DNA of 64,000 nt from an uncultured Gemmatimonadales bacterium (GTDB lineage Bacteria; Gemmatimonadota; Gemmatimonadetes; Gemmatimonadales; Gemmatimonadaceae): NCBI GenBank assembly GCA_963851265.1, contig CAWKNZ010000001.1, positions 32,001-96,000 on the forward strand, in the 5' to 3' direction. The notes under the pieces are model-generated. The model had not been told where the DNA came from. It was given only the letters and a program-made list of their open reading frames with translations, and searched no databases. This document shows positions 41,733 to 56,131 of this stretch, piece after piece. The first letter of the stretch is position 1, and each line of letters starts with the position of its first letter. The position numbers and the translations under genes are program-made.

Positions 41733-44039
41733 ATGCCGCCGTCCGCTGATCGCCCCGTCGGCAACCCCGCGGTCGTGTCTGGTCACTCGGGACTGAGGGT
41801 CTACCGGGCGCTCCCCGCCGCCGCCGGGCTCGCCGCGCTCGCGATCGGCACGCTGGTGCTCGTCGGCTGGACCACCAGGCTGGTCGTCCTCACCCGCGGG
41901 CTTTGGGCGACCACCGCCACGATGCCCGACACCGCGGTCGCCATCGTGCTGCTCGGCGTGTCGCTCTGGCTCCTCCGCCCGCGCGACGGCCGCGCACCGG
42001 CCGCCGGCACGCCCGCCGTCGGCATCGGACGCCTGTGCGCCGCCACGGCCTGCGTGCTCGCGCTGCTCATGGGTTTCGAGTGGGTCTCCGGGCGCGACCT
42101 CGGCATCGATCGCCTGCTGTTCTCGAGCGCGTTGACCGACGCCGTGCGGAACGGCGTCAGCGCGACGCCCGGGCGCATGGCGGGCAACACCACGCTCGCC
42201 GTGTTCCTGCTCGGCGCCGCCCTCCTCCTGCTCGACGCGCCCGCCCTCGAGGGCCGCGGTGCGGGCGCGCGCCTCGGACGCATCGCGCGGTGGGCGTGCA
42301 ACGGACTCGGCATCCTGCTGCCGTACTTCGCGGTCGTCGGGTACCTGTTCGGAGTGCGGCGGCTGTACAACCCGTCCGGGTTGCTCGCCGGTATGGCCCT
42401 CACCACCGCGTGCGCACTCACCTGCGTGGCCGTCGGGACCTCGCTCGCGCGCCCCGCCCGGGGCGTCGCGCGGCTGCTCACCGGCGAGGACGCGGGCGCC
42501 CACCTGCTGCGGCGTTCGCTACCGGTGACCGCGTTCGTGCCGGTGCTGCTCGGCTGGCTGCGCATCCGTGGCGAGGAACTCGGCTTCTTCACACCGCGCG
42601 TGGGCGTGGCGGCTATCGTCCTCGCGTTCACGGTCGTGATGGTCACGACCCTCACCCGGGCGGGCGCCGCCGCGTACAAGCTCGCCGCCGACCGCGCCCG
42701 CATCCTCGGCGAACGCGAGGCGGCGCGCGAAGCCGCACGCGAGGCGCTGGAGCGCGGCGAGGCCGAGTTCCGGGAACTGGCCGACAACCTTCCGCAGCTC
42801 GCGTGGATGGCCGACGCCACCGGCTCGATCTTCTGGTACAACCGGCGCTGGTACGACTACACCGGAAGCACGCCTGACCAGATGCTCGGCTCGGGCTGGC
42901 GTGTGGTCCAGCACCCCGACCACCTCCAACGCGTCGAGAACGGCTACCGGACCGCCGTCGCGCGGGGCACGCCGTGGGAAGACACCTTCCCGCTGCGCTC
43001 GGCCGACGGCGAGTGGCGCTGGTTCCTCTCGCGCGCCAACCCGATGCAGGCGTCGAGCGGAGGGACGGTTCGCTGGTTCGGTACCAACACCGACGTCACC
43101 GCGCAACGCGCCCTCGAGGCCGAGCGCGAGCGCCTGCTCGCCGCCGAACGCCTCGCGCGCGCCGACGCGGAGCGCGCGAGCGCGGAAGCCGCTGCGGCGA
43201 GTCGCGCCAAGAGCCAGTTCCTGGCGACGATGAGCCACGAATTGCGCACCCCGCTCAACGCGATCTCGGGTCACGTGCAACTCGTCGAACTCGGCCTGCA
43301 CGGGCCCGTCACCCCCGAGCAGCGTGACGCGCTCAACCGCGCCCAGCGCGCCCAGCGCCACCTGCTCGGCCTCATCAACGACGTGCTCAACCTCGCGAAG
43401 ATCGAGGCCGGGCGCGCCGACTACCGCATGGACGAGGTCGTCGTCGCCGAGCTCGCCGCAGACGTCACGTCGCTCGTCGCCCCGCAGCTCGCGGCCAAGG
43501 GCGTCACCTTCGCCGTCGACGTGCCCGACGAGCACGCGGCCGTCGCGTGGGCCGACCGCGAGAAGACATCACAGGTGCTGCTCAACCTGTTGAGCAACGC
43601 GATCAAGTTCACCGACGCCGGCGGACACGTCACCCTCGAGGCGCGCGCCGAGGACGGCGGCGCCGGACCCGTCGTGGTCTTCCGCGTGCGCGACACCGGG
43701 CGCGGAATTCCGTTCGAAGACCGCGACCGCATCTTCGAGCCGTTCGTGCAGCTCGACGCCGGGTACGCGCGGCAGCAGGAGGGTACGGGACTCGGGCTCG
43801 CGATCAGTCGCGACCTCGCGCGCGGCATGGGCGGCGACCTCACGCTCGTGACGAGCAGTGAGGACCACGGGTCGGTGTTCGCGCTTACGCTCCCCCGCGT
43901 GCTGCCGTCTGGCCCCGACGCCGACCGCCGAACCGGCGAGGAGCGACGCGACGGTCAACGCCGCGAAACCGCCGACCGGCGCACCGGCGAGGAGCGGCGC
44001 GACGAGCTGCTGGACCCGAACATCACGTTCGACAACTGA
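41733..44039 (+). CDS. Membrane-bound PAS sensor histidine kinase with Arg-rich C-terminal tail
   Basis: About 8 TM helices, PAS 'WYNRRWYDYTG...WRWFLSRA', H-box 'MSHELRTPLN', G-boxes. Confidence 0.9.
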   Translation: MPPSADRPVGNPAVVSGHSGLRVYRALPAAAGLAALAIGTLVLVGWTTRLVVLTRGLWATTATMPDTAVAIVLLGVSLWLLRPRDGRAPAAGTPAVGIGRLCAATACVLALLMGFEWVSGRDLGIDRLLFSSALTDAVRNGVSATPGRMAGNTTLAVFLLGAALLLLDAPALEGRGAGARLGRIARWACNGLGILLPYFAVVGYLFGVRRLYNPSGLLAGMALTTACALTCVAVGTSLARPARGVARLLTGEDAGAHLLRRSLPVTAFVPVLLGWLRIRGEELGFFTPRVGVAAIVLAFTVVMVTTLTRAGAAAYKLAADRARILGEREAAREAAREALERGEAEFRELADNLPQLAWMADATGSIFWYNRRWYDYTGSTPDQMLGSGWRVVQHPDHLQRVENGYRTAVARGTPWEDTFPLRSADGEWRWFLSRANPMQASSGGTVRWFGTNTDVTAQRALEAERERLLAAERLARADAERASAEAAAASRAKSQFLATMSHELRTPLNAISGHVQLVELGLHGPVTPEQRDALNRAQRAQRHLLGLINDVLNLAKIEAGRADYRMDEVVVAELAADVTSLVAPQLAAKGVTFAVDVPDEHAAVAWADREKTSQVLLNLLSNAIKFTDAGGHVTLEARAEDGGAGPVVVFRVRDTGRGIPFEDRDRIFEPFVQLDAGYARQQEGTGLGLAISRDLARGMGGDLTLVTSSEDHGSVFALTLPRVLPSGPDADRRTGEERRDGQRRETADRRTGEERRDELLDPNITFDN

Positions 44040-44042
44040 CCC

Positions 44043-44537
44043 GTGGCCGAAACCACACTCGACCTGCGACACCTCCCCAAGCACGACGCCTACGCCCAGC
44101 TCGACGCGCATGTGCGCGCGGTGCTCGCCGGCGTCGACGACCCTATTGCCGGGATGGCGACCGTGAGCTGCCTCGTGCACCACGCCTTCGGCCACCTGTG
44201 GACCGGGTTCTACCGCGTCGTCGACCCCGGCCGGCTGCTGCGTGTGGGCCCGTACCAGGGCACGCTCGGCTGCCTCGACATCGCGTTCGGCCGCGGCGTG
44301 TGCGGCACCGCGGCGGCCGACGGGCGGACGGTGGTGGTCGAGGACGTCGAAGCGTTTCCGGGCCACATCGCATGCGACGCGCGGTCGCGCAGCGAGATCG
44401 TGGTGCCGGTGTGGGACCGCGACGGCGCGCTCCTGGCCGTGCTGGACGTGGACAGTGAGCGCGTGGGCGCGTTCGACGCCGACGACGCCGCGGGGCTGGC
44501 GCGGATCGTCGCACGCTTCGCCGAACCGCCGGCGTAA
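44043..44537 (+). CDS. msrC: GAF-domain protein, free methionine-R-sulfoxide reductase-like
   Basis: 'WTGFY', 'GPYQG..GC', 'GRGVCG', 'GHIACD..SRSEIVVP', 'LDVDS'. Confidence 0.8.
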   Translation: MAETTLDLRHLPKHDAYAQLDAHVRAVLAGVDDPIAGMATVSCLVHHAFGHLWTGFYRVVDPGRLLRVGPYQGTLGCLDIAFGRGVCGTAAADGRTVVVEDVEAFPGHIACDARSRSEIVVPVWDRDGALLAVLDVDSERVGAFDADDAAGLARIVARFAEPPA

Positions 44538-44610
44538 CGGACCGCCTCGCACCGCCCCGCCGCACGACCGGCCCCACGCTCCGGCCCGCCCGGTATTACA
44601 ATCCCCCCCG

Positions 44611-45234
44611 ATGGCCGTCCCCGGATACTCCGACCGCGTCAACCACGCGCTCGCCTTCGCCGCGAAGCACCACGACCGCGAGGTGCGCAAGGGCACGCGG
44701 GCGCCCTACTTCACCGCGCCGGCCAACGTGGCCGTGATCCTCACGCGCTACGATTGCGACGAGGACACCGTCGTGGCCGGGGTGCTGCGCCACGCGGTCG
44801 AGGACATGCTGCGCGACGGGGCGAGCGAGGACGGCGTGCACGAGCGCCTGGCCGACAAGTTCGGCCCCGACGCGGTGGAGGCGGTGCTGCACGTGGCCCG
44901 CCGCCGCTTCGACGACGACGGCGTCGAGCTGTCGCACGAGGAGCAGAAGCACGACACGCTCGACCGCCTCGCCAGCGCGTCGGACGCGGCGCGGTGGGCC
45001 TTCGCCGCACACGAGGTGCACGACGCGGCCACCCTCCTCGCCGACCTGCGGCGCACGAGCTTTCCCGACTCGGTATGGCAGCGCGTCGCCGAAGGGCCGG
45101 TCGGGCGAGTCCGCTGGTACCACGACGCCGCGGCACGCCTCGCCGCCGTCGGATTCCACGCCGGCATCATCGACGAGTTGCGCGGCGCCGCCGCAGCCCT
45201 CGACGGCAGCGCGCCCGCGTCGATGGCCCGATAG
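44611..45234 (+). CDS. Small alarmone-hydrolase-like HD protein with degenerate metal motif
   Basis: 'ALAFAAKHH..VRKG..APY' and 'VAGVLRHAVED...KFG' match the RelA/SpoT HD fold. Confidence 0.7.
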   Translation: MAVPGYSDRVNHALAFAAKHHDREVRKGTRAPYFTAPANVAVILTRYDCDEDTVVAGVLRHAVEDMLRDGASEDGVHERLADKFGPDAVEAVLHVARRRFDDDGVELSHEEQKHDTLDRLASASDAARWAFAAHEVHDAATLLADLRRTSFPDSVWQRVAEGPVGRVRWYHDAAARLAAVGFHAGIIDELRGAAAALDGSAPASMAR

Positions 45235-45261
45235 CCGGGTCGACGCACGAAACACGAGAGG

Positions 45262-45287
45262 CGGGGGGCCCGGTGACGGGCCCCCCG
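45262..45287. terminator. GC-rich hairpin, probable terminator
   Basis: 11-bp stem cggggggcccg/cgggccccccg downstream of the HD gene. Confidence 0.55.
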
Positions 45288-45317
45288 TCGTGCGTCCGGG
45301 CTGGCAATCTCGACCAT

Positions 45318-45345
45318 TCAAGTCTGACTGCGGTCGTGCCGATAA
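45318..45345 (+). promoter_or_regulatory. sigma28 (FliA/WhiG)-like promoter
   Basis: TCAAG-N15-GCCGATAA; both boxes conserved in copy 2 while the spacer differs. Confidence 0.6.
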
Positions 45346-45476
45346 CGGAGCCCGAGGCGCTCGCCACCTCCGGCTCCGCACCTCGCTCCACTCCGCTTTC
45401 ACAGCAAAGACGCATATGTCGCCACGTCGCAACAGCAGCCCCCGGCTGCCGCGCGCGCGCCACATCGCCCGCGTCG
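45318..45476 (+). repeat. Duplicated leader block, copy 1 (promoter + uORF start)
   Basis: Colinear with 51257-51415; both have 98 nt from TCAAG to ATG. Confidence 0.85.
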
Positions 45477-45532
45477 GCCCGGCGCTCGGCCCCGCCGCCC
45501 GCGCCGGCACCCCCGCACCCCGGATCGGCTGA
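45416..45532 (+). CDS. Putative 38-aa leader peptide (uORF 1)
   Basis: MSPRRNSSPRLPRARHIARVGPALGPAARAGTPAPRIG; its TGA overlaps the next ATG. Confidence 0.45.
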   Translation: MSPRRNSSPRLPRARHIARVGPALGPAARAGTPAPRIG

Positions 45533-46221
45533 TGCCCCTCGCCTTAACCTCGTTCCGCCGCGGCCTGCGCGCCGCCACGCCCGCGATCGCCCTCGGCACC
45601 GCAGCCCTCACCGCGGCGCTCGCGGCCTGCTCCGACAGCAACAGCCCGACTGGCCCGGTCGTCGCGAGCGCCCGCACGCCGCAGCCCGTTGGGCCCGCGT
45701 ATGCGACCGCGAGCACGGCGGCCTCCCAGGTGCTCAGCCAGACCCAGAGCGGCGACACCACGGTCACGACCCTGCAGCTCGGCACGAGCACCGGCCAGCT
45801 GGTCGCGCAGATCGGGAACGCGAGCAAGATCGTCTTCCCGTACGCCGCCGCTTCGGTGTGTGACCCGGCGAGCTCGAGCTATGGCATCGGCACGTGGAAC
45901 AGCCCGTGTACCGCCGCCACGACCCCGATCCAGATCACGGCTAAGACGTGGGTCGACCCGGAGACCGGCAAGACCCGGAGCAGCTTCTCGCCGGCGCTCC
46001 GCTTCGTGCCCGGGCTCAAGAGCAGCGGTCACGCTCTACCTCCACGACCCGAACCAGCGTCGCGAGGCGACGCGATCTGGTACTGTCCCGACGGCGCGCT
46101 CACGTTGCGTGGACGAGGCGAGCGCGGACCCGAGCGTGGCCACCCAGTACGGCAGCAGTAGCCAGCGGGTCTACGCGCGGCCATCAAGCACTTCTCCGGC
46201 TACACCGTCGTCGTCAACTGA
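45532..46221 (+). pseudogene. HFSGY-terminated lipoprotein 1, multiply frameshifted (sequence error or decay)
   Basis: Lipobox LAAC. Similarity to 52089-52829 alternates between two frames over 46020-46185 and ends IKHFSGYTVVVN-stop. Confidence 0.7.
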
Positions 46222-46225
46222 CGGC

Positions 46226-46293
46226 GCGCGGACGGACGCGATCGGGGGCAGTCGGGCAGATGCCCGACTGCCCCCGATCGCGTCCGTCCGCGC
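46226..46293. repeat. Perfect 33-bp inverted repeat with 2-nt spacer
   Basis: gcgcggacggacgcgatcgggggcagtcgggca-ga-tgcccgactgcccccgatcgcgtccgtccgcgc. Confidence 0.9.
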
Positions 46294-46419
46294 CGCACGA
46301 AGCCCGTCTCGCCCCGCGGTGCCGGGCGATGTCACGCCCGGCCGACATACCCGTCCTATCGACGGCCACCGAGTGGCCTCTCGATTCGCACGCCCGTTCC
46401 CGCCGTCCCTGGTCCGCGC

Positions 46420-49400
46420 ATGTCCGCGCTCGCGCATCCCGCGCCCCGCCCCGCACACCTCCGCCTCGTGCCGGCTCACGCCGACGCGCTGCAGACGCGC
46501 GTCGCCGAACTGGTAGCGAGGGGGCAGGAGGCCGAGCGGCAGGGGCATCGGGCCGCCGCCCGCGCGAGCTTCGAACAGGCGCTGCACGCGCTCGACGACG
46601 CGGCGACGGCGCGCGAGCACGCGTCGGCCATCGTGCGCATGATCGCGCGCACCTGCCAGATGGATTCCGAGCCGGACGCCGCGCTCGACTGCCTCGAACT
46701 CGCGCTGGCGATCGCCGAAGCCTGGGCCGACGGAACGGGCATCGGCCACGCCATCAACGGGCAGGCGATCGTGAACTGGCAGACGGGGCGCCTCGATGAG
46801 GCGGAGCGCCTGTACCTGCTCGCGCGCACGCGCGCCCTGCAGAGCGGCGACGCGAAGCTCGCGGCGATGACCGCACAGAACCTCGGCGTCCTCGCGAACG
46901 CGCGCGGCGACTACGAGGTCGCCCAGCGCCACTACGAGCGGAGCCTCGCCGAGTACCGCGTGCTCGGCCTCACGCACGACGTGGCCGTCGCGCTCAACAA
47001 CCTGGGACGGCTGCACACCGCGCGCGGGCAGTGGAAGGCGGCGGAGCAGGTGCTCGTCGAGGCCGCCGAGATCTGCGACCTCGCGGGCGACGTTGCCACA
47101 CGCATCGCGGTCGACGCGAACGTGGCGGAGATGTGGGTCGCGCAGGGCGCGTTCGACCGCGCGCAGGCCGCGGTCACCCGCGCGATCGAAGGTGCGACGA
47201 ACGTCGGGGACACGTCGGTCCTGGGGCAGGCGGACAAACTGCTCGGGATCATCGCGCGCGAGGCGGGCGAGTTCGTGACCGCCGAACGGTATTTCGTACA
47301 TGCCGACGAGGTGGCGAGGGCGCGCCAGGACGTGCTGCTCCAGGCGGAGATCGCCCGCGAGCGCGGGGACCTGGCGCAGCGCGTCGGGAAGAACCGCGAC
47401 GTGCTGCAGCACCTCAATCGCTCGCACCGGCTGTTCACCGAGTTGCGCGCGGGCGCCGACGTGGCCGACATCGACCGGCGGCTCGGCGGGCTCGAGGCGC
47501 AGTTCCTCGAGGTCGCGCGCCGGTGGGGCGAGTCGATCGAGTCGAAGGACTGCTACACCCAGGGGCACTGCCAGCGCGTGGCCGACCTCGCGTGCCTCCT
47601 CGCCGAGCACGCGGGGGCCGACCACGGCTTCGACGCGCAGGCCATGTTCTGGTTCCGGATCGGGGCGCTGCTGCACGACGTCGGCAAGCTGATGATTCCG
47701 CCCGAGGTGCTCAACAAGCCGGGCAAGCTGACCGACGAAGAGTGGATCCTGATGCGGAGCCACACGACCGCGGGGGTGGCGATCCTCGCCGACATCGAAT
47801 TCCCCTGGGACGTCCGCCCGATCATCGAGTCGCACCACGAGCGGTGGGACGGGCGCGGATACCCGAACCGCCTCGTCGGCGAGGCCATCCCGCTCACCGC
47901 GCGCATTCTGTGCGTGGCCGACGTCTACGACGCGCTCACCTCGGTCCGGTCGTACAAGCGCGCCCTGACGCACGACGAGGCCGTGGGCATCATGCGCCGC
48001 GACGTCGGGACCATGTTCGACCCGCAGGTGTTTGCCTGGTTCGAGGAGATCGCCGCCGAGTGGGCGGGGCGCGTCGCCGCACCCGACGCGTCGCCGCCTG
48101 CCGCCGCCGCACCGGCGGTCGCGCCGCCCGCAGCGCCGGCGTCCGAAACCGGGACGTCGTCGGTGAGCGAGTCGGAAGCCCCCGCGCGCGCCGACGTGCC
48201 CGACGACCTCACCGGGCTGCCGCTCCGGCGAGCGTTCCGCGATACCGCCGAACGCATCCTCGCCGCGCGGCGGACCACCGGCCGGCCGGTGTCGCTGCTC
48301 GTCATCGACGTCGACCACTTCAAGCTCGTCAACGACACCTTCGGGCACCTGCAGGGCGACGACATCCTGCGGGCCGTGGCCGACCAGATCCGAGCCAGCA
48401 CCCGCCCGGTCGACTACCCGGCACGGTACGCGGGCGACGAGTTCGTGGTGCTCCTGCCCGGGACACGGCTCGACGAGGCACGGGCCGTGGCCGAGCGGAT
48501 CCGGTCGGCGGTCGCGCGTGCGACCTGTCCGCGGCGCGACGGACCGGGCGTGGTCTCGGTGACGCTGTCGATCGGTGTCGCGACCCTCCCGCAGCACGGC
48601 GAGACCCTCGAAGCCCTGTTCGCGGCGTCCGATGCGGCGCTCTACGACGCCAAGCGCGCCGGCCGGAATGCCGTGAGCGCGGGGTCGGCCGACGCCGACC
48701 GGCGCCGTGACCTGATGCTTGAGTGCTTCGTGGGGCGTGTGGCCGAGCGTGCCCACCTGCGCGAGCGCCTCGACGCGGCCGCCCAGGGCCGCCCGCACGT
48801 GGTCGCCGTGTGCGGCGAGGCGGGCGTCGGCAAGTCGACGCTGGTCAAGCAGCTCGCACCCGACGTCGGCATTCGCTCCGGCTCGCTCATCACCGGGCGG
48901 TGCGTCGACACCGACCTGCGCGCGCCGTACGCGCCCTGGGTGGACGCGGTGCTCGGCGTGCTCCGTGCCGGCATCGCCCCCCGGCATGCGTGGCGCGAGC
49001 TGACGCGCCTCGTCCCCGAGCTGGTCGGCGGTGCGGACGCGTCCCGTCGCGAGACGGGTTCGCCGCACGCGCTGCTCGAGGAACTCGACCTCTTCTTCCG
49101 CCTCGCGTCGGAGATCCGACCCATAGTCGTCGTGCTCGACGACATGCAGTGGGCGGACACTGCCAGCTGGAGCGCGCTCGAGTACCTCGTCGGCCGGTTC
49201 GACACGCAGCGGCTGCTGATCTGCCTCACCATCCGCGCCGAGGACCTCGACGATGCGGGCGACGCACGCCGCCGCCGGCTCTCGCGCGCCGACGTCTATA
49301 CCGAGATCTCGCTCCCCCGGCTCACCGAGGCGGACCTCGCGCTGTGGCTGCGGACGGCCCTCGGAGGCCAGGAGCCCGAGCCTGCGCTCCTCGCCTACCT

Positions 49401-51240
49401 CGTCGCGCAGAGCGAGGGGAACTCGTTCTTCGCGCTGCAGACGCTCCGCGCGCTCGCCGACGACGAGCGCCTGACGTTCGTCGACGGGCGCTGGACGTTC
49501 GATGCCGCGGCCGACGGCTCCATGCCGCGCGCGATCCACGATCTGCTCGCGCGCCGGGTCGCTCGGCTCGACCGACCCTGCCGCGACGCCCTCGCGGTCG
49601 CGGCCGTCCTCGGACGCGAGTTCGACCCGGAGACCCTGGTCGCGGCGTGCGAGGGGAACGAGGCCGGGGTACTCGACGCCCTCGATGCCGGGATGGAGGC
49701 CGCGGTGCTGGTCCCGTCCGAGATCTCGCCGACGGCCGTCGCGTTCGCGCACACGCTCCTCACGCGCGTGCTGCAGGACGGGATCAACCCGCTGCGCCTG
49801 CGTCGCATTCACGAGCGCGTGGGGCGTGCGCTGGAGTCGCGCGGCGGGCACGCGCCGGCCCAGGTCGCGCTGCACTTCGACCGCGCGGGGTGTGCCGAGG
49901 ACGCCTACCGGACGGCCATGAACGCCGGCGCGCGCGCGGCCGACCTGTACGCGTACGAGACGGCGGCGGACCTCTTCGAGATGGCACTCCGGCACGCGCG
50001 CACGCTGCGCGAGACGGCCGACGTCGAGTGGCGCACCGCGCAGATCGCCGAGATCCGCGGCCGCTACGCCGACGCGGAACGTGCGTGCGACGCCGTCCTC
50101 ACCACGTTCGCCAGCGGGGCGGCGGAGATCGGGATCCTGCGTGCGGCGCGCCGCATGCGCGAGCGACTCCGCCTTCAGCGAGGGGCGTCGGCGAGCCAGG
50201 TCGCCGAGACGTGTACCGAACTGCTCGCCGAGGCGCGCGCGGCCGGTGCCGACGAGGAGATCGTCCCGCTCCTGATCATGATCTCGACGGCGCACGGGCG
50301 GCGCGGCGACGGGTCCGAAGCGGCGCGAATCGCCCGCGACGCGAACGACGAGGCCGAGCGGCTCCGCAGCCTCCCGCTCCAGGCGGACGCCGCGATGCGG
50401 CTCGGGTCGACGGTCCTCGAGATCAGTCCCGCCGACGCCGTCCCGCACTACCGGCGGGCGCTCGACATCTTCACGCGCCTCGACAACCGGTACGGGCAGC
50501 TGCGCGCACAGATCAACATCGGCGTGGCCTGCGACCGGGCGGGGAACAGCCCGGGGGCGGAGGTCTCGTACGCGACCGCGCTGTCGATCGGGCGCGACAT
50601 CCGCGCGACGGACCTCACCGGCATCGCGTCGCTCAACCTCGGCGTGCTCCTGCTCAAGACTGGCCGGTTCGACGGCGCACGGGAGCGCTTCGAGGAGGCG
50701 CGACAGCTCTTCGTGACGATCGCGAACGAGCCGTACCGACTGGCCGCGCTGTACAACCTCGCGAACGTCGCCCGCGAGTGCGGCGACGCGGCCGGCGCGC
50801 TCGAGCTGTACGGCGCGGCCATCTCGCTCGCCGAGTCGTTGGGTCACGCCGACGTGCACGCCGGCGCCCTCGCCGGCGCCGGATTGGCCGAACTCGACCT
50901 CGGCGCGATGCGCGGCGCGCGCGTGCACCACGACGCCGTGCGCGCGCTCGTCGACGGGCGGACGGACGCGTGGTTCGAGGGGCGCGAGCTGTGCGAGGCG
51001 CTCGACGTCCGGCTCGCCGCGCAGGATGGGTCGGAGTCCGAGGCGGTCGCCCGACTGCTCGACGCGCTCGACCGCGCGGAGCTGCACAACCAGTACGCCG
51101 CCATCTGGCTCGGGGCCGAGTGCGCGGCCGTGCTCCGGAGCGCGGGACGCGTGGCCGAAGTCACGCTGCACCGGTTCCTCGTGCACGCGCGCGCCCTCGG
51201 CTACGACCCGCTCGTCACGCGACTGCGCGCGGACGGTTAG
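46420..51240 (+). CDS. TPR / HD-GYP / GGDEF / AAA (STAND-like) / TPR multidomain signalling protein
   Basis: TPR-like 'AQNLGVL','LNNLGRL'; 'LLHDVGK...HHERWDGRGYP'; 'DVDHFKLVNDTFGH..GD...RYAGDEF'; 'GEAGVGKS','VLDDMQWAD'; C-terminal TPR-like repeats. Confidence 0.92.
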   Translation: MSALAHPAPRPAHLRLVPAHADALQTRVAELVARGQEAERQGHRAAARASFEQALHALDDAATAREHASAIVRMIARTCQMDSEPDAALDCLELALAIAEAWADGTGIGHAINGQAIVNWQTGRLDEAERLYLLARTRALQSGDAKLAAMTAQNLGVLANARGDYEVAQRHYERSLAEYRVLGLTHDVAVALNNLGRLHTARGQWKAAEQVLVEAAEICDLAGDVATRIAVDANVAEMWVAQGAFDRAQAAVTRAIEGATNVGDTSVLGQADKLLGIIAREAGEFVTAERYFVHADEVARARQDVLLQAEIARERGDLAQRVGKNRDVLQHLNRSHRLFTELRAGADVADIDRRLGGLEAQFLEVARRWGESIESKDCYTQGHCQRVADLACLLAEHAGADHGFDAQAMFWFRIGALLHDVGKLMIPPEVLNKPGKLTDEEWILMRSHTTAGVAILADIEFPWDVRPIIESHHERWDGRGYPNRLVGEAIPLTARILCVADVYDALTSVRSYKRALTHDEAVGIMRRDVGTMFDPQVFAWFEEIAAEWAGRVAAPDASPPAAAAPAVAPPAAPASETGTSSVSESEAPARADVPDDLTGLPLRRAFRDTAERILAARRTTGRPVSLLVIDVDHFKLVNDTFGHLQGDDILRAVADQIRASTRPVDYPARYAGDEFVVLLPGTRLDEARAVAERIRSAVARATCPRRDGPGVVSVTLSIGVATLPQHGETLEALFAASDAALYDAKRAGRNAVSAGSADADRRRDLMLECFVGRVAERAHLRERLDAAAQGRPHVVAVCGEAGVGKSTLVKQLAPDVGIRSGSLITGRCVDTDLRAPYAPWVDAVLGVLRAGIAPRHAWRELTRLVPELVGGADASRRETGSPHALLEELDLFFRLASEIRPIVVVLDDMQWADTASWSALEYLVGRFDTQRLLICLTIRAEDLDDAGDARRRRLSRADVYTEISLPRLTEADLALWLRTALGGQEPEPALLAYLVAQSEGNSFFALQTLRALADDERLTFVDGRWTFDAAADGSMPRAIHDLLARRVARLDRPCRDALAVAAVLGREFDPETLVAACEGNEAGVLDALDAGMEAAVLVPSEISPTAVAFAHTLLTRVLQDGINPLRLRRIHERVGRALESRGGHAPAQVALHFDRAGCAEDAYRTAMNAGARAADLYAYETAADLFEMALRHARTLRETADVEWRTAQIAEIRGRYADAERACDAVLTTFASGAAEIGILRAARRMRERLRLQRGASASQVAETCTELLAEARAAGADEEIVPLLIMISTAHGRRGDGSEAARIARDANDEAERLRSLPLQADAAMRLGSTVLEISPADAVPHYRRALDIFTRLDNRYGQLRAQINIGVACDRAGNSPGAEVSYATALSIGRDIRATDLTGIASLNLGVLLLKTGRFDGARERFEEARQLFVTIANEPYRLAALYNLANVARECGDAAGALELYGAAISLAESLGHADVHAGALAGAGLAELDLGAMRGARVHHDAVRALVDGRTDAWFEGRELCEALDVRLAAQDGSESEAVARLLDALDRAELHNQYAAIWLGAECAAVLRSAGRVAEVTLHRFLVHARALGYDPLVTRLRADG

Positions 51241-51256
51241 GCGGTCAGGCGCGCGC

Positions 51257-51415
51257 TCAAGTCGCGCCGGGCTGTTGCCGATACTCCGGCCCGAGGGCGT
51301 CGCCACCTCCGGCGCCGCGCCTCGACCCACCCCGCTTCCACAGCAACGACGCATATGTCGCCACGCCGCAACAGCAGCCCCCGGCTGCCGCGCCTGCGCC
51401 ACATCGCCCGCGTCC
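51257..51415 (+). repeat. Duplicated leader block, copy 2 (sigma28-like promoter at 51257-51283 + uORF start)
   Basis: TCAAG-N15-GCCGATA, then a block nearly identical to 45350-45476. Confidence 0.85.
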
Positions 51416-51471
51416 CCTCGGCGGCAGGCCCCGCCGGTGGCGCGGTCTTCACGTTCACCTTGAGCATCTGA
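51355..51471 (+). CDS. Putative 38-aa leader peptide (uORF 2)
   Basis: MSPRRNSSPRLPRLRHIARVPSAAGPAGGAVFTFTLSI; stops 3 nt before the next ATG. Confidence 0.45.
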   Translation: MSPRRNSSPRLPRLRHIARVPSAAGPAGGAVFTFTLSI

Positions 51472-51474
51472 CTA

Positions 51475-52089
51475 ATGCGCCACCTCACATCATTCCGCCG
51501 CGCCGTGCACGTCGCGACGCCCGCGCTCGCCCTCGGCACGGCCGTCGTCACGGCCGCCCTCGCCGCCTGCTCCGACACCCCGACCGGGCCGGCCACTCCG
51601 AACGCGGCCGAAGCCGCGTTCCATCCGGGCCTGCACGCGAACGTGTCCTCGAGTCCGATGGCGGTCACGCCCGTCAAGCGGACGCAGCGTGTCGCGCAGG
51701 ACTCGGTCGTCACCTTCACCGTGCAGCCCGGCGGGACGACGTTCCGCGGCCCGGACGCCTCGATCAGCTTCCCGGCCGGGTTCGTGACCAAGCCGACGCA
51801 GTTCACGGCCACCCGCAAGGGTGGCAGCGCCCTCGCCTACGACTTCCAGCCCTCGGGCACCTTCACGAAGCCGGTGACGGTCACGTTCACGCTCGCAGGG
51901 GCGGCGATCCCGGCCGGCGCGAATCTCTCGGCGCTGCAGGGCGCCTACGTGCAGGATTGGAGTCAGGTCAGCGACTCCACGGCTGCGGTCAGCGAACTCG
52001 AGCCCACCACGGTCGACCCGAAGTCGGGCACGGTGACGATGACCCTCTCGCACTTCTCCGGCTACCTCGTCTCGTGGGGGCGGCGCTAA
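51475..52089 (+). CDS. HFSGY-terminated lipoprotein 2 (ZU5-like)
   Basis: Lipobox LAAC; 'GG...ISFPAG...FQPSGTFTKPVTVTF' is ZU5-like; ends LSHFSGYLVSWGRR. Confidence 0.8.
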   Translation: MRHLTSFRRAVHVATPALALGTAVVTAALAACSDTPTGPATPNAAEAAFHPGLHANVSSSPMAVTPVKRTQRVAQDSVVTFTVQPGGTTFRGPDASISFPAGFVTKPTQFTATRKGGSALAYDFQPSGTFTKPVTVTFTLAGAAIPAGANLSALQGAYVQDWSQVSDSTAAVSELEPTTVDPKSGTVTMTLSHFSGYLVSWGRR

Positions 52090-52829
52090 TGCGTAGCACG
52101 TTCGCCCCCCTGCGTTACGCCGTGCGCGCGGCCACGCCCGCGCTCGCCCTCGGCGTCGCCACGCTCACCGCGGTGCTGGCCGCGTGCTCCGATAGCTCCA
52201 CCGGCCCGACGCAGCCCAGCGCGCCGTCGGCGAGTCGTGCGGTCGCTCCGCCGCCCCCCGCGGCGATGCTCGCCGCGCTCTCGCAGGGCGTCCAGGGCGC
52301 GACCACCGGCCCGTCGTTCTCCCGCGTGGCCGAGCAGTCGGCGGTGGCGCACGGCGATACCGCCATCATCACGCTGACCTTCGACCCCACGGTCGCGCAC
52401 ACCGTCGCGTTCAACACGCGCACCAGCCAGAACGGCGTCGCCCTCGCCGCCAACTCGGTGTGCAACCCGGCGACGTCGGGCTACGGGCCACTCCTGTGGG
52501 ACGCGCCGTGCCAGGTGGCGACGAAGCCCTTCACCCTCACCGTCCGGGGCTGGATGGGAACCGATGGCCAGCCGAAGGTCGCGTTCTCGCCGGACATCCG
52601 GTTCGCGCCGTCGGCCACCAACTGGCTCTGGCTGGCGGGACCCGGCGCCGGGTCCGCGAAGGGCGTGATCGCGTGGTGCCCGACGGCCGGCGGCCTGTGC
52701 GTCAACGAGTCCGCGCTCGACGGAAGCGTGATGACCGGCACCGACAAGGGGATCTACTACCGGCGGATCAAGCACTTCTCCGGCTACACCGTGGTGGTGA
52801 ACCGGACCGGGGCGGTCGACGGTCTCTGA
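52089..52829 (+). CDS. HFSGY-terminated lipoprotein 3
   Basis: TAATG coupling to the upstream gene, lipobox LAAC, four further Cys, ends IKHFSGYTVVVNRTGAVDGL. Confidence 0.8.
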   Translation: MRSTFAPLRYAVRAATPALALGVATLTAVLAACSDSSTGPTQPSAPSASRAVAPPPPAAMLAALSQGVQGATTGPSFSRVAEQSAVAHGDTAIITLTFDPTVAHTVAFNTRTSQNGVALAANSVCNPATSGYGPLLWDAPCQVATKPFTLTVRGWMGTDGQPKVAFSPDIRFAPSATNWLWLAGPGAGSAKGVIAWCPTAGGLCVNESALDGSVMTGTDKGIYYRRIKHFSGYTVVVNRTGAVDGL

Positions 52830-52869
52830 CGGGGCGCTCGACCGCTGGGCCTCGATCGTCAGGCACCGA

Positions 52870-52932
52870 GCACGCGGAAACACACGGGGCCGCCGGGCGA
52901 CATGCCCGGCGGCCCCGTGTGTTTCCGCGTGC
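52870..52932. terminator. Perfect 29-bp inverted repeat between convergent genes (bidirectional terminator candidate)
   Basis: gcacgcggaaacacacggggccgccgggc-gacat-gcccggcggccccgtgtgtttccgcgtgc. Confidence 0.8.
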
Positions 52933-52937
52933 GAGCC

Positions 52938-54650
52938 TCAGCGTGTGGCCACCGTGCCGTGCGCGGCCTGCCCGGAATCGCCCGCGATGCCCCAGTCGGC
53001 GATTCCGGCCCACCAGGCGTCGGCGCGCATCGCGACCGGTCGCAGGTCCCGTCGCACGGCGGCGATGCTGCGCGGCTCGTATAGCCACACCGCGGGCGCG
53101 TCGTCGATGATCGTGGCGTAGGCGCGCCGAACGAGTGCCGTGCGGCGCTCCGGCTGGAACTCGGCGGAGGCGCTGTCGAGGAGCGCGTCGAAGGTCGCGT
53201 TCGTCCAGCGCCCGGAGTTGGCGCCGCCGTCCGCGCCGCGCGGCGTGCCCCAGTCGTGGCGCAGCGTGGTCGGATTCGGGTCGGTTCGCCACGAATTGAG
53301 CGCGACGTCGAAGTCGCCCGCGTGCAGGCGCTCGATGAAGCTTCCCGGGTCGACCGCGTCGATGTTCACGCGCACGCCGATCTGGGCCAGCTGGGCCTGC
53401 AGCAGCACCGCGAGACGCATGCGCGGCACGCTACTCGTGGGAACGAGGAGTGCGAGGTCGAGCGGCCGGCCGGCGCGCGCGCGCCGGCCCGACGTCGGGT
53501 CGAGCCGCCAGCCCAGGGCGTCGAAGCCGCGCGCCGCGGCGGCCGGATCGTAGGCGATCTGGCGGAGCGTCGTATCCGCCGTGGGTTGCGCGCGCGTGAA
53601 CGGTCCGAGGGCGACGCGGGCGCTGGGGCCGAGCGCGTTGCGCACCACCGCCGCGCGGTCGATCGCCTGGGTGAGCGCGACGCGTGCGGCGCGGTCGGCG
53701 AACGGCGCACCGATGCCGGCCCCGCGCGCGCCGGTGCGCGCCCGCTCGTTGAAGACGAGGAAGGCGTAATCCAGGCTGCCGTATTCGACGGTGCGCAGCC
53801 GGGGCGAGCGCGCCGCGCGGTCGATGGCCTCGCCGCGGACGGCTTCGAGCACGTCCGCCTGCCCCGACAGGACGCTGGCGAGCGCCGCGTTGGGGTCGCC
53901 GGTGACCGTCCAGACGACGCGGTCGAATCGCGGACGGCCGCGGTAGTTGGTCGTATCGGCGTTGAGGGTCAGCTGACGGTGGTGGTCCCAGGCGGCGAAC
54001 CGGTAGCGTCCGGAGCCGATCGGATGCGCGGCGAACGCGGACGTCGCGACGGCCGAACGCGGTACGCTGCCGAGCAGGTGCTCGGGCATCACGGCCAGGT
54101 TGTAAGCGACCTGGAAGAACTGCTCGGGGGAGCGGCGGTGCCACCACACGACGGCGGTGAGCGAGTCGCGCACGGCGACCGAGTCCATGCCCGCGAAATC
54201 GGAGGCGTGGACCGAAGCGCCCGTCGTGTCGGTGAACAGGGCGAACGAGAAGCGTACGTCGCGCGCGCGTACCGGCCGGCCGTCGTGCCAGCGTGCGCGC
54301 GGGTCCAGCTCGAAGGCGATCGAGAGCGAATCGGGGGCCCACGTCCAGCGCCGTGCGAGCTGCGGGCGGTAGCCGCCGTCGCCGTTGGTGGGGACCGAGT
54401 CGTCGGCGGTCGCGAGATGGTCGAAGACGAGGTCGACCGCCTGCTTGCCCTGGGTCGTGGCGACGAGCGGCGGGATCAGCTGGTCGGCGTCGGCCGGCGT
54501 CGCGATCACGAGGGCCTGGGCTCCGCGTCCCGACGGGGGGGTGCCGCGTCCGCAGGCCGCGACGGTGAGGGCCGCGAGCGCGGCGAGCGGGAGCGCGTGC
54601 GGGCTGGGGGCGTGCGGGCGGGGGGCGTGCGGGCGCGGCGACGGCGGCAT
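52938..54650 (-). CDS. Peptide/nickel ABC transporter substrate-binding lipoprotein (family 5)
   Basis: Lipobox VAAC, 'PQLARRW', 'RWHDGRPV.ARDVRFSF', 'PIGSGRYRF', 'ALTQAIDR'. Confidence 0.88.
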   Translation of the reverse strand: MPPSPRPHAPRPHAPSPHALPLAALAALTVAACGRGTPPSGRGAQALVIATPADADQLIPPLVATTQGKQAVDLVFDHLATADDSVPTNGDGGYRPQLARRWTWAPDSLSIAFELDPRARWHDGRPVRARDVRFSFALFTDTTGASVHASDFAGMDSVAVRDSLTAVVWWHRRSPEQFFQVAYNLAVMPEHLLGSVPRSAVATSAFAAHPIGSGRYRFAAWDHHRQLTLNADTTNYRGRPRFDRVVWTVTGDPNAALASVLSGQADVLEAVRGEAIDRAARSPRLRTVEYGSLDYAFLVFNERARTGARGAGIGAPFADRAARVALTQAIDRAAVVRNALGPSARVALGPFTRAQPTADTTLRQIAYDPAAAARGFDALGWRLDPTSGRRARAGRPLDLALLVPTSSVPRMRLAVLLQAQLAQIGVRVNIDAVDPGSFIERLHAGDFDVALNSWRTDPNPTTLRHDWGTPRGADGGANSGRWTNATFDALLDSASAEFQPERRTALVRRAYATIIDDAPAVWLYEPRSIAAVRRDLRPVAMRADAWWAGIADWGIAGDSGQAAHGTVATR

Positions 54651-54757
54651 GCGGCCGGGGAGTGTGGGGCGGCAGGATGGCGGGCGGGCCGCTCCTGCGG
54701 AGGGGGCGGCGCGGATCGGATGCGATCTGCACCGGGCGTCACCCCCTCAGACGCCCA

Positions 54758-56131
54758 TCACACGCCCGCGGGCACGCCCTGCGGCACGCCGGCCGGCACG
54801 CGCGCGTCGTCGGCGGCCGCGTCGGCCGCGGTCGGGTAGGTGCGCTCGACGTACTCCTCCAGGATACCGAGGAACTCCTCGACGATCCGGTCCCCCTTGA
54901 GCGTCGTCATCAGCCGCCCGTCCACGTAGACCGGCGCCTTGGGCTCCTCGAACGTTCCCGGCAGCGAGATCCCGATGTTCGCGTGCTTGCTCTCGCCCGG
55001 CCCGTTCACCACGCACCCCATCACGGCCACCTTCATGTCGACCACGCCCGGGTGCGAGCGCTTCCACACCGGCATCTGCTCGCGCAGGTACGTCTGGATG
55101 TCCTCGGCCATGTGCTGGAAGAACGTGCTCGTCGTGCGCCCGCACCCCGGGCAGGCCGTGACCTGCGGCGCGAAGCTGCGCATGCCTAACGACTGCAGCA
55201 CCTGCTGCGCGACGTAGACCTCCTCGGTGCGGTCGCCGCCGGGCTTGGGCGTGAGCGAGACGCGGATCGTGTCGCCGATGCCGTCGGCCAGCAGGATCGA
55301 CAGGCCGGCCGTCGAGGCGACGACCCCCTTGCTCCCCATCCCCGCCTCGGTGAGGCCGAGGTGCAGCGGGTAGTCGCAGCGCCGGCCGAGCCGGCGGTAC
55401 ACCTCGACGAGGTCGGGCACCACCGAGACTTTGGCCGAGATGATGATCCGGTCGTGCCCGAGCCCGACCTCCTCGGCCAGCGCGGCGGAGCGGAGCGCGC
55501 TCTCGAGCATCGCCTCCATGTAAACCTCCTTCGCGCCTAACGGGGCGGCGCTCGCGGCGTTGGCGTTCATCATCGCCGTGAGGAGGTCCTGGTCGAGCGA
55601 GCCCCAGTTGACGCCTATGCGCACGGGCTTGCCGTGGTCGATCGCGACGCGCACGATCTGCGCGAAGTTCTCGTCGCGCCGCTTGTTGCCGACGTTGCCC
55701 GGGTTGATGCGGTACTTGTCGAGCGCGGCGGCCGCGGCCGGGTACTTCGTCAGCAGCAGGTGCCCGTTGTAGTGGAAGTCGCCGACGAGCGGCACGTCCA
55801 GCCCGAGGTCGTCGAGCCGCGCGCGGATCTCGGGGACGGCGGCGGCGGCCTCCTCGTTGTTCACCGTCACGCGCACGATCTGCGAGCCGGCCCCGAACAG
55901 CGCGGCCACCTGCGCGACCGTGCCCGCGGCGTCGGCGGTGTCGGTGTTGGTCATCGACTGTACGACCACCGGGTGCGCCGACCCGACGGCGACGTTGCGG
56001 ACCCAGCTCGTCACCGTCGCGCGGCGGCGGGCGAAGGGGGACGGCTCGGCGGCGGTCGGACCCGCGGCGGGCGGGACGGCACTGCTCGCCTGCGTGGCGA
56101 GGTCGGCGACGGGAAGCGGCGAGGACGGCAT
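54758..56131 (-). CDS. ispG: 4-hydroxy-3-methylbut-2-enyl diphosphate synthase
   Basis: 'VQSMTNT', 'RINPGN', 'RIGVNWGSL', 'HLGLTEAG', 'CPGCGR', '[10 protein letters not shown]'. Confidence 0.95.

Follow-up and report, generated by a model that had tools for sequence, protein, structure and literature searches.

A conserved module of small lipoproteins and TPR-linked cyclic di-GMP enzymes in a Gemmatimonadota family, probably a new peptide-type signalling system

Peptide quorum sensing of the RRNPP type (Rap, NprR, PlcR, PrgX) operates in Firmicutes together with import through Opp. In these systems the gene for an exported precursor adjoins the gene for a cytoplasmic receptor built of tetratricopeptide repeats (TPR), and the processed peptide re-enters the cell via a family-5 binding protein and a permease. 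ZU5, GPS and the Nup98 domain form one autopeptidase superfamily (PMC3482391), and bacterial ZU5 members have been located in polymorphic toxins and large surface proteins (Zhang et al. 2012, PMC3482391); small lipoproteins of the kind treated below are not described in the part of that paper available to us. Here we analyse a locus at positions 45318-54650 of a 64,000-nucleotide stretch of DNA from an uncultured Gemmatimonadales bacterium (the window), in which small lipoproteins with the C-terminal motif HFSGY stand beside a TPR protein with domains for cyclic diguanosine monophosphate (c-di-GMP) turnover and a family-5 solute-binding protein (SBP). The module is real and conserved, and it is probably a new peptide-type signalling system. 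As our leading single account, held tentatively when the whole chain is considered, we propose a three-part envelope-to-cytoplasm signalling module of one Gemmatimonadota family, encoded in the window by the following genes.

45532..46221, forward strand: lipoprotein 1, type A, ZU5/GAIN-like; disrupted in the assembly, with an HFSGYTVVVN end after frame corrections only
46420..51240, forward strand: cytoplasmic TPR/HD-GYP/GGDEF/AAA_16/TPR protein of 1606 residues (aa), by Pfam and NCBIfam
51475..52089, forward strand: lipoprotein 2, type B, 204 aa, lipobox LAAC; ends in HF followed, after the putative cut, by SGYLVSWGRR (HFSGY plus 7 residues)
52089..52829, forward strand: lipoprotein 3, type A, 246 aa, its ATG overlapping the TGA of lipoprotein 2; ends in HF followed, after the putative cut, by SGYTVVVNRTGAVDGL (HFSGY plus 13 residues)
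52938..54650, reverse strand: family-5 solute-binding lipoprotein, 570 aa (Pfam SBP_bac_5, E 4e-63)

In the proposed mechanism, the first part would comprise one to five small lipoproteins, the whole mature part of each being a ZU5/GAIN-like beta-sandwich that would most likely cut itself between F and S of the sequence H-F-S-G-Y, leaving its last beta-strand (7-16 residues here, as in SGYLVSWGRR or SGYTVVVN...) held non-covalently. The second part, present at a subset of loci, would be the family-5 binding protein, sometimes with OppB/OppC-like permeases, and the third a cytoplasmic protein in which TPR sensor arrays are joined to an HD-GYP phosphodiesterase/GGDEF cyclase, usually via a STAND NTPase switch. 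On unfolding, pulling or degradation of the lipoprotein, the strand-peptide would be freed, taken up by binding protein and permease, and bound by a TPR array, shifting the enzyme between making and breaking c-di-GMP. Release of such peptides and their action on the TPR-gated enzyme had been proposed in the preliminary description. That the freed last strand is the signal, imported via the family-5 protein and a permease and read by a TPR array, we regard as possible and somewhat doubtful.

The fold of the lipoproteins is the starting point for this proposal. AlphaFold2 (AF2) models of lipoproteins 2 and 3 reach a predicted local distance difference test score of 82 (core above 90) and 76, respectively, and were searched against 48,161 representative chains. 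The top structural match of both is an ankyrin ZU5 domain (lipoprotein 2: Z 10.0, root-mean-square deviation 2.5, 113 aligned residues; lipoprotein 3: Z 10.1, root-mean-square deviation 2.9, 126 aligned), with top three Z scores of 10.0, 9.7 and 9.1 for the former and 10.1, 9.0 and 8.6 for the latter. Next follow the GAIN domains of CD97, Gpr126, BAI3 and CELSR1 (Z 7.2-8.6) and UNC5b (Z 7.1-7.5), then at lower scores the FIIND domains of CARD8/NLRP1 (Z 5.4-6.3) and Nup98/Nup145 (Z 4.0-5.0); the GAIN domains of GPR110, GPR56, GPR97 and latrophilin-3 and the ZU5 domain of ZO-1 are further matches. A Z of 7-8 can reflect a common arrangement, but here one related set of families, consisting of ZU5, GAIN, FIIND and Nup98 chains, occupies the top of both lists with best values of about 10, and Foldseek gave concordant results. 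We note that family names outside the top rows of such lists (Nup98, PIDD, GAIN) are not thereby excluded.

The position of the motif within this fold is telling. Chains deposited as N-terminal cleavage fragments align to model ranges that end at F194 of lipoprotein 2 or F230 of lipoprotein 3, the fragments themselves ending at NLRP1 1212, rat NLRP1 187, GPR56 382, Gpr126 827, GPR110 566, GPR97 249, latrophilin-3 854 and Nup98 863, and the end of the Nup145 chain (606) aligns to model residue 231. The end residues of the NLRP1, Nup98 and GPR56 chains we take to be the P1 residues of scissile bonds, which is implied for the remaining chain ends. In the model of lipoprotein 3, a strand break at S231-G232 separates HF from the last strand. 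The beta-sandwich shared by the ZU5 superfamily and its His-hydrophobic-Ser/Thr/Cys triad before the last strand are thus both present, while the PF00791 gathering score is not reached by proteins of this genome; one relative (P0019) carries a precomputed PF00791 match, and a profile search against the PDB returned the ZO-1 ZU5 domain at E 0.43 only. Among 20 type-B and 35 type-A sequences no change is seen in H, F, G or Y of the motif, and its S is conserved to at least 90%; 89 of the 94 motif matches in 69 fetched loci read HFSGY, under a search pattern that limited the visible variants. Resting on models and motif, it is likely that the lipoproteins fold as a ZU5/GAIN-like sandwich and cut themselves between HF and S. 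The preliminary description of the locus had named this bond as a self-cleavage site, in agreement with the fold (Z to 10) and with the motif lying at the ends of self-cleaved chains; cleavage as such stays a prediction. A C-terminal sorting signal of the sortase/exosortase type was considered and rejected, as the hydrophobic stretch after the motif spans only 4-5 residues.

The lipoproteins form two related families. In a six-frame translation of the 4.6-Mb genome, HF[STARC]GY occurs seven times, in all seven cases 5-13 residues ahead of a stop, and six of the seven open reading frames carry a lipoprotein signal with lipobox cysteine in their translations; the second copy on contig C3 (265578) is alike in its N-terminal region, its start codon not being fixed. 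Judged from these translations, HFSGY-ending frames are more than chance in this genome. No Pfam or NCBIfam model matches the HFSGY lipoproteins. Type B (lipoprotein 2) was represented by 22 proteins in a word-indexed search and, in the full representative library, by 2547 clusters (50% identity) at E ≤0.001, 923 at 1e-10 and 410 at 1e-30, nearly all of 190-230 aa; type A (lipoproteins 1 and 3) comprised 125 proteins. The organism names given by the sources are all Gemmatimonadota for both types, except for a single 'Anaerolineae bacterium' label. Within a sample of the phylum, type A was present in 10 of 301 genomes, all of one family (9 of the 69 sampled plus the window's genome), and in 0 of the 231 genomes searched across 11 other families. 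The two types are homologous (hhalign probability 99.8%, E 9e-30, signal peptide included), type A having extra conserved cysteines, and they are arranged in arrays of one to five genes per locus. Fusions of an A and then a B domain, each with its own HFSGY, occur as well (P0100; L037, 8278-9267) and are reminiscent of the two ZU5 domains of PIDD. The signal peptides show a twin arginine (FRR[AG][VL]), then a hydrophobic core and the lipobox LAAC (window 45532-45630, 51475-51575 and 52089-52192), and such twin-arginine signals could mean twin-arginine translocation, i.e. export of a folded and possibly already cleaved lipoprotein.

The partner gene of the window encodes the five-part protein that had been read from the sequence beforehand, and Pfam confirmed that reading at 46420-51240: TPR_12, HD_5/HD (HD-GYP), GGDEF, AAA_16 and a C-terminal TPR/TPR_MalT region. 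HD-GYP extends over aa 382-537 (HD_5, E 5e-36), GGDEF over aa 595-750 (E 2e-43) and the AAA_16 STAND NTPase over aa 770-934, with TPR arrays at the N-terminus and, MalT-like, at the C-terminus. The catalytic motifs of HD-GYP and GGDEF are present, as the translation reads HD...HHERWDGRGYP, RPVD-x5-AGDEF (RxxD five residues upstream) and GEAGVGKS. AGDEF variants can be active. By inspection no signal peptide was seen in the 1606-aa protein. Among partners at other loci, HD-GYP and GGDEF with STAND, or GGDEF (degenerate) with STAND, are the forms found: the TPR array is constant and the output domain varies. A complex prediction, run without controls, for the C-terminal TPR array of the partner at L063 with the 34-aa C-terminal fragment of its lipoprotein scored 0.02 against a mark of 0.32, a value that bears on binding in neither direction.

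Linkage of the two gene kinds was followed through the family, for which 251 genomes in 77 genera were available. Type A is present in 81 genomes (31 of the 77 genera), type B in 111 (45 of the 77) and the TPR-HD-GYP N-terminal half (E ≤1e-40) in 169, these tallies taking in genomes flagged unpublished (G320 for type A; G320, G321 and G390 for TPR-HD-GYP). Fifty-six loci centred on type A were fetched, 29 of them picked by coordinates for a TPR-HD-GYP match alongside and 27 for having none. At all 29 of the former the complete five-part gene adjoins lipoprotein genes; at 11 of the 27 without a match, the lipoprotein lies directly downstream of a gene of ~1000 aa that combines a GGDEF domain, degenerate in part, with AAA_16 and a C-terminal TPR array of the same kind. 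An AAA_16 gene is thereby found within 4 kb of the motif at 40 of the 56 loci, and the linkage that the preliminary description proposed to check by a neighbourhood survey is conserved across many genera. Across 14 genomes, 23 of 36 type-A places are linked, a share that is biased upward because these genomes were chosen for at least one linked place; the count takes in all listed type-A places except a cut match in G331 (C118) and an unlisted match in G415. For type B, at least 75 of the 150 matches listed lie within 4 kb of a listed TPR-HD-GYP match (hand count), which is a lower bound, 150 of the 303 TPR-HD-GYP matches being listed; coordinate matching was partly done by hand. In the window's own genome, five of the seven HFSGY genes adjoin three of the four TPR-HD-GYP paralogs, two of which are ~740 aa long and without a STAND part. 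On the basis of this conserved neighbourhood, lipoproteins and TPR-linked c-di-GMP enzyme very probably work as one module.

Other arrangements were observed alongside. In another genus (L081, 2290-8458) a type-B lipoprotein is followed by a TPR protein (349 aa), a sigma-54 activator with HTH_8 (362 aa), a TPR-HD-GYP protein (651 aa) and a family-5 binding protein, an order suggestive of a second, transcriptional output in addition to c-di-GMP. A constant distance of ~2.2-2.3 kb separates many type-B genes from a short TPR-HD-GYP gene, perhaps a recurrence of this arrangement. On contig C3 of the window's genome (263935-265610), a leader and two type-A lipoproteins stand with a GMC-type oxidoreductase-like open reading frame upstream and with no TPR, STAND or HD-GYP gene nearby; lipoproteins therefore also occur unlinked.

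The gene converging on the lipoproteins was correctly foreseen as a family-5 one, given the SBP_bac_5 match at 52938-54650 on the reverse strand. Its closest solved relative is the oligopeptide-binding AppA of B. subtilis (E 7e-31). Since family 5 also binds nickel, opines and sugars, the ligand of the window SBP is not fixed by its family. A paralogous SBP-OppB-OppC set is present on contig C2 of the window's genome. Among 150 SBP_5 matches listed, 22 (hand count, the window's included) lie within ~3 kb of a TPR-HD-GYP match. At least six arrangements are seen, with the SBP gene convergent or divergent, upstream or downstream, and with long and short partner forms. Thirteen of these SBP loci were fetched: nine hold a type-B HFSG[YW] lipoprotein, and six have two BPD_transp_1 OppB/OppC-like permease genes beside the SBP. 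At the type-A locus L043, SBP, OppB, OppC, lipoprotein and sensor follow each other on one strand, and SBP with OppB/OppC-like permeases is seen at seven fetched loci. The view that the SBP_5 gene is unlinked, taken from the type-A-centred loci, was dropped after this SBP-centred comparison. At L079 (10724-12326) the SBP gene matches as two overlapping pieces in different frames and may be frameshifted.

What follows the motif is very variable. The shortest tails are the last strand alone (SGYNVWA), and in one genus a conserved Cys loop follows it: L053, L054, L057, L063 and L071 carry a disulfide-type loop C-x-P-S-P-D-D-P-D-C after the last strand and have ~1000-aa GGDEF-STAND-TPR partners upstream. 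Some long type-A tails (L026-L029, L037 and L022) finish in a second SGY-type strand (...SFAGFLVGY, ...TGYMLAWA), which could compete for the strand groove after cleavage.

Several findings weigh against the proposed mechanism, the chief weakness being that in all solved relatives the cleaved strand is retained in the sandwich, so that something more, such as force, unfolding or breakdown of the N-terminal fragment, would have to set it free. Both AF2 models place the C-terminal strand with confidence as an integral element of the fold, and by analogy to Nup98, GAIN and FIIND it may simply stay bound after cleavage. The compartments differ too, with the lipoprotein exported and the sensor cytoplasmic, and a transport step is therefore obligatory; within the window no permease gene lies beside the SBP, and an SBP homolog was found at only 3 of the 56 type-A-centred loci. 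Membership of the family-5 gene in the module, as put forward in the preliminary description, is accordingly borne out in that the gene recurs at these loci, in some with OppB/OppC-like permeases, and falls short at the loci chosen for type A. Moreover, a STAND partner is lacking near 13 of the 36 type-A places in the 14 genomes, and the 94 tails in the fetched loci range from 7 to 185 residues from the S to the end (median 17, with 37 of at most 10). The motif has exceptions, i.e. HFRGY (P0009), HFAGY (P0030) and HFTGY (P0102 and P0140), and Pfam ZU5 (PF00791) gave no match to lipoproteins 2 and 3 at E ≤0.1 and scored 15.8 bits on the paralog P0014, against a cut-off of 21.

The retained and confidently modelled strand, together with the lack of an SBP at most type-A loci, would also fit self-cleavage as a maturation or structural step after which the strand stays, the lipoproteins serving at the envelope or surface (in adhesion, matrix or envelope upkeep) under control of the c-di-GMP enzyme encoded next to them and the SBP reporting nutrient or cell-wall peptides independently. 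Arrays of one to five lipoproteins per locus, as often seen for surface-protein paralogs, are consistent with this as well. We nevertheless consider it unlikely, because Pfam detects no DNA-binding or c-di-GMP effector domain at the window locus, because constant TPR arrays with changing outputs fit a shared input better than a shared target, and because the recurrence of SBP and OppBC in several arrangements would be left unexplained. The top structural matches raise a further alternative, as these are ankyrin ZU5 domains, which to our knowledge are not known to self-cleave: the domain could be ZU5-like but non-cleaving, as are those of ankyrin, UNC5 and ZO-1, with HFSGY and its tail as no more than a conserved last beta-strand and with no autoproteolysis at all, and the rare members with HFAGY or HFRGY would agree with that. 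The H-F-S triad is, however, invariant or nearly so in the 55 aligned sequences, superposes on P1/P1' of at least eight self-cleaved structures and, in the part of the source seen, is the motif of the PIDD and Nup98 cleavage sites (PMC3482391), which makes a purely structural strand quite improbable.

A repeat-bearing STAND NTPase alongside a ZU5-type autoproteolytic domain also recalls NLRP1/CARD8, and the locus might be a guard-type defence or stress system like NLRP1 or PIDD in trans. The STAND NTPase would then be the switch and the ZU5 lipoproteins the envelope bait, such that destruction of the N-terminal fragment by a phage, predator or stress protease turns the pre-cut C-terminal fragment into an alarm. 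Diverging paralog arrays at the loci fit such a role, and ZU5 autopeptidases and STAND proteins recur in bacterial conflict systems according to the portions available of two papers (PMC3482391, PMC8195603). The output is c-di-GMP turnover, however, with no toxin or nuclease, and the chromosomal synteny with housekeeping genes (IspG, histidine kinase) is conserved within the genus, with no mobile island; we regard this explanation as very unlikely. Returning to the freed strand as a signal, its widest form would have a diderm phylum signalling by peptide pheromone, or signalling the state of its envelope, with a dedicated family-5 protein and permease, TPR readers and interchangeable outputs (HD-GYP, GGDEF-STAND and possibly sigma-54 activators), and to this we assign a rather low likelihood.

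Besides the genes, the locus contains the following DNA elements, in a region of 73% G+C.

45260..45290, forward strand: G+C hairpin of 13 bp downstream of the HD_4 gene, RNA fold -35 kcal/mol
45318-45531, forward strand: leader 1
45318..45344, forward strand: promoter-like box, copy 1, TCAAGTC-N13-GCCGATA, conserved across leader copies
45416..45532, forward strand: upstream open reading frame (uORF) 1, 38 codons (MSPRRN...RHIARV...), its TGA overlapping the ATG of lipoprotein 1
46226..46293, no strand assigned: perfect hairpin with 33-bp arms, fold -87 kcal/mol
51257-51474, forward strand: leader 2
51257..51283, forward strand: promoter-like box, copy 2
51355..51471, forward strand: uORF 2, 38 codons, its stop 3 nucleotides (nt) ahead of the lipoprotein 2 ATG
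52870..52932, no strand assigned: perfect hairpin with 29-bp arms between the convergent lipoprotein 3 and SBP genes, fold -76.5 kcal/mol

From left to right the order is hairpin, leader 1, lipoprotein 1, hairpin, 1606-aa gene, leader 2, lipoproteins 2 and 3, hairpin and the convergent SBP gene. The first hairpin is likely a terminator and the 5' border of the unit. The two long hairpins of the preliminary description are indeed perfect, with arms of 33 and 29 bp, each unique in sequence within the genome; neither has a T-run and a canonical terminator scan gave none there, and they are likely terminators or 3' stabilisers of a high-G+C type.

The shared promoter-uORF leader noted beforehand corresponds to a direct repeat of 187 nt (45318-45504 and 51257-51443) with 81% identity. 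Four full copies exist in the genome, each ahead of an HFSGY lipoprotein, as is a fifth, weaker copy on contig C2. The TCAAGTC-N13-GCCGATA box, present in all four full copies and in same-genus leaders, is a putative promoter element; it is not sigma-70-like, and a sigma-70 promoter scan gave no promoters. An Rfam search of 44000-56000 returned 12 matches at E ≤1, all far below the gathering scores and mostly microRNA models on hairpins, and by this search the leader belongs to none of the known RNA families. Seven leaders were compared, four of the window's genome and three of two further genomes in the genus; in each of the seven, a conserved ATG begins a frame of 36-40 codons (MS[PT]RRN...R.RHIARV...) that ends 0-3 nt before the present lipoprotein start codon, the junction being TGATG in three and TGA-NNN-ATG in four. 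In three further related leaders this ATG is the start of the lipoprotein itself, signal peptide and lipobox included, and the N-terminus of relatives such as P0005 and P0007 starts with the same residues as the uORF. For this reason the uORF, as far as these comparisons go, is a vestigial lipoprotein N-terminus, kept open and coupled to the present start, and a regulatory leader or arrest peptide was set aside. The frame noted ahead of the lipoproteins is thus there, though not as a regulatory novelty.

Lipoprotein 1 requires a separate account. The claim that three lipoproteins end in HFSGY plus 5-13 residues applies to lipoproteins 2 (plus 7) and 3 (plus 13); the own frame of lipoprotein 1 stops at TAG 46159-46161, before the motif, and its HFSGY end (plus 5) is reached via frames 1, 2, 1, 2 and 1, i.e. 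by four frame changes. Compared to the syntenic same-genus ortholog, it has insertions of 1, 2, 4 and 2 nt that restore the frame pairwise. Where the reading is out of frame, the other frame still codes for family-like sequence, so the breaks would be either very recent or assembly errors. A search of sequencing runs for the window sequence gave one soil-metagenome DNA run (0.12 share of words), whose contigs span only 45300-45521 and 46182-46217, outside the frame breaks; no RNA run was listed.

Upstream of the locus, positions 41733-45234 encode a histidine kinase of PAS/HisKA/HATPase architecture (768 aa, RRTGEERRD being repeated in its tail), a 164-aa GAF protein and a 207-aa HD_4 protein. 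The order histidine kinase, GAF, HD_4, lipoproteins, sensor and IspG is kept in the closest relative, a same-genus genome (L019), where lipoproteins 2 and 3 and the binding protein are missing from the locus.

If true, these proposals would give the TPR-linked c-di-GMP enzymes, a large and so far uncharacterised class, their first input signal. They would show bacteria making small signalling peptides by self-cleavage of the ZU5/GAIN type, a process familiar from receptors of animals, from inflammasomes and from nuclear pores, and they would add an abundant phylum of soils to the Firmicutes as users of RRNPP-like peptide communication. With the 2547 clusters above, the lipoprotein family is a large one to have no Pfam or NCBIfam model, and the module is found in many soil Gemmatimonadota. 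A limited literature search found no description of the pairing of HFSGY lipoproteins with TPR-c-di-GMP enzymes. What appears to be new is the ZU5-like domain as a stand-alone lipoprotein, together with its linkage to TPR-c-di-GMP enzymes and to importers of peptides, whereas bacterial ZU5 autopeptidases as such are already known, as the accessible part of the literature documents (PMC3482391).

Compared to RRNPP systems, a TPR receptor gene likewise lies beside an exported-precursor gene in conserved order. The precursor here is a folded, putatively self-cleaving lipoprotein of 190-250 aa, in contrast to the short pro-peptide of 40-60 aa that other proteases cut, the outputs are HD-GYP, GGDEF and STAND instead of the helix-turn-helix or phosphatase outputs of RRNPP receptors, and the phylum has an outer membrane. 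STAND NTPases with TPR sensors of the MalT and AfsR type share the order of AAA_16 and then a MalT-like TPR array, from which an inducer-driven switch is expected; here the effectors are c-di-GMP enzymes and not DNA-binding domains, and a second TPR array is present at the N-terminus. With the bacterial ZU5 autopeptidases, as far as the available part of their description goes (PMC3482391), the lipoproteins have in common that a secreted bacterial protein carries a ZU5-type self-processing domain, which there is the N-terminal domain of giant RHS or adhesin proteins with TcdB/TcaC-type export and here makes up the whole protein, linked to c-di-GMP genes. In agreement with the ZU5-superfamily domains in general (PIDD1 ZU5, the FIIND of NLRP1/CARD8, the C-terminal domain of Nup98/Nup145, and GAIN/GPS), they show the beta-sandwich and the H-[FL]-[ST] triad at a kink before the last strand. 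They differ as small stand-alone bacterial lipoproteins, by the subthreshold Pfam ZU5 scores of this genome's members and the extra cysteines of type A, and in that the C-terminal fragment is a strand, sometimes with a short tail, where the known domains have a receptor, a death fold or a nucleoporin. With GAIN they share that the part after the putative cut is the fold's last strand, and the proposed freed strand would be the bacterial equivalent, in untethered form, of the tethered agonist found in adhesion G-protein-coupled receptors.

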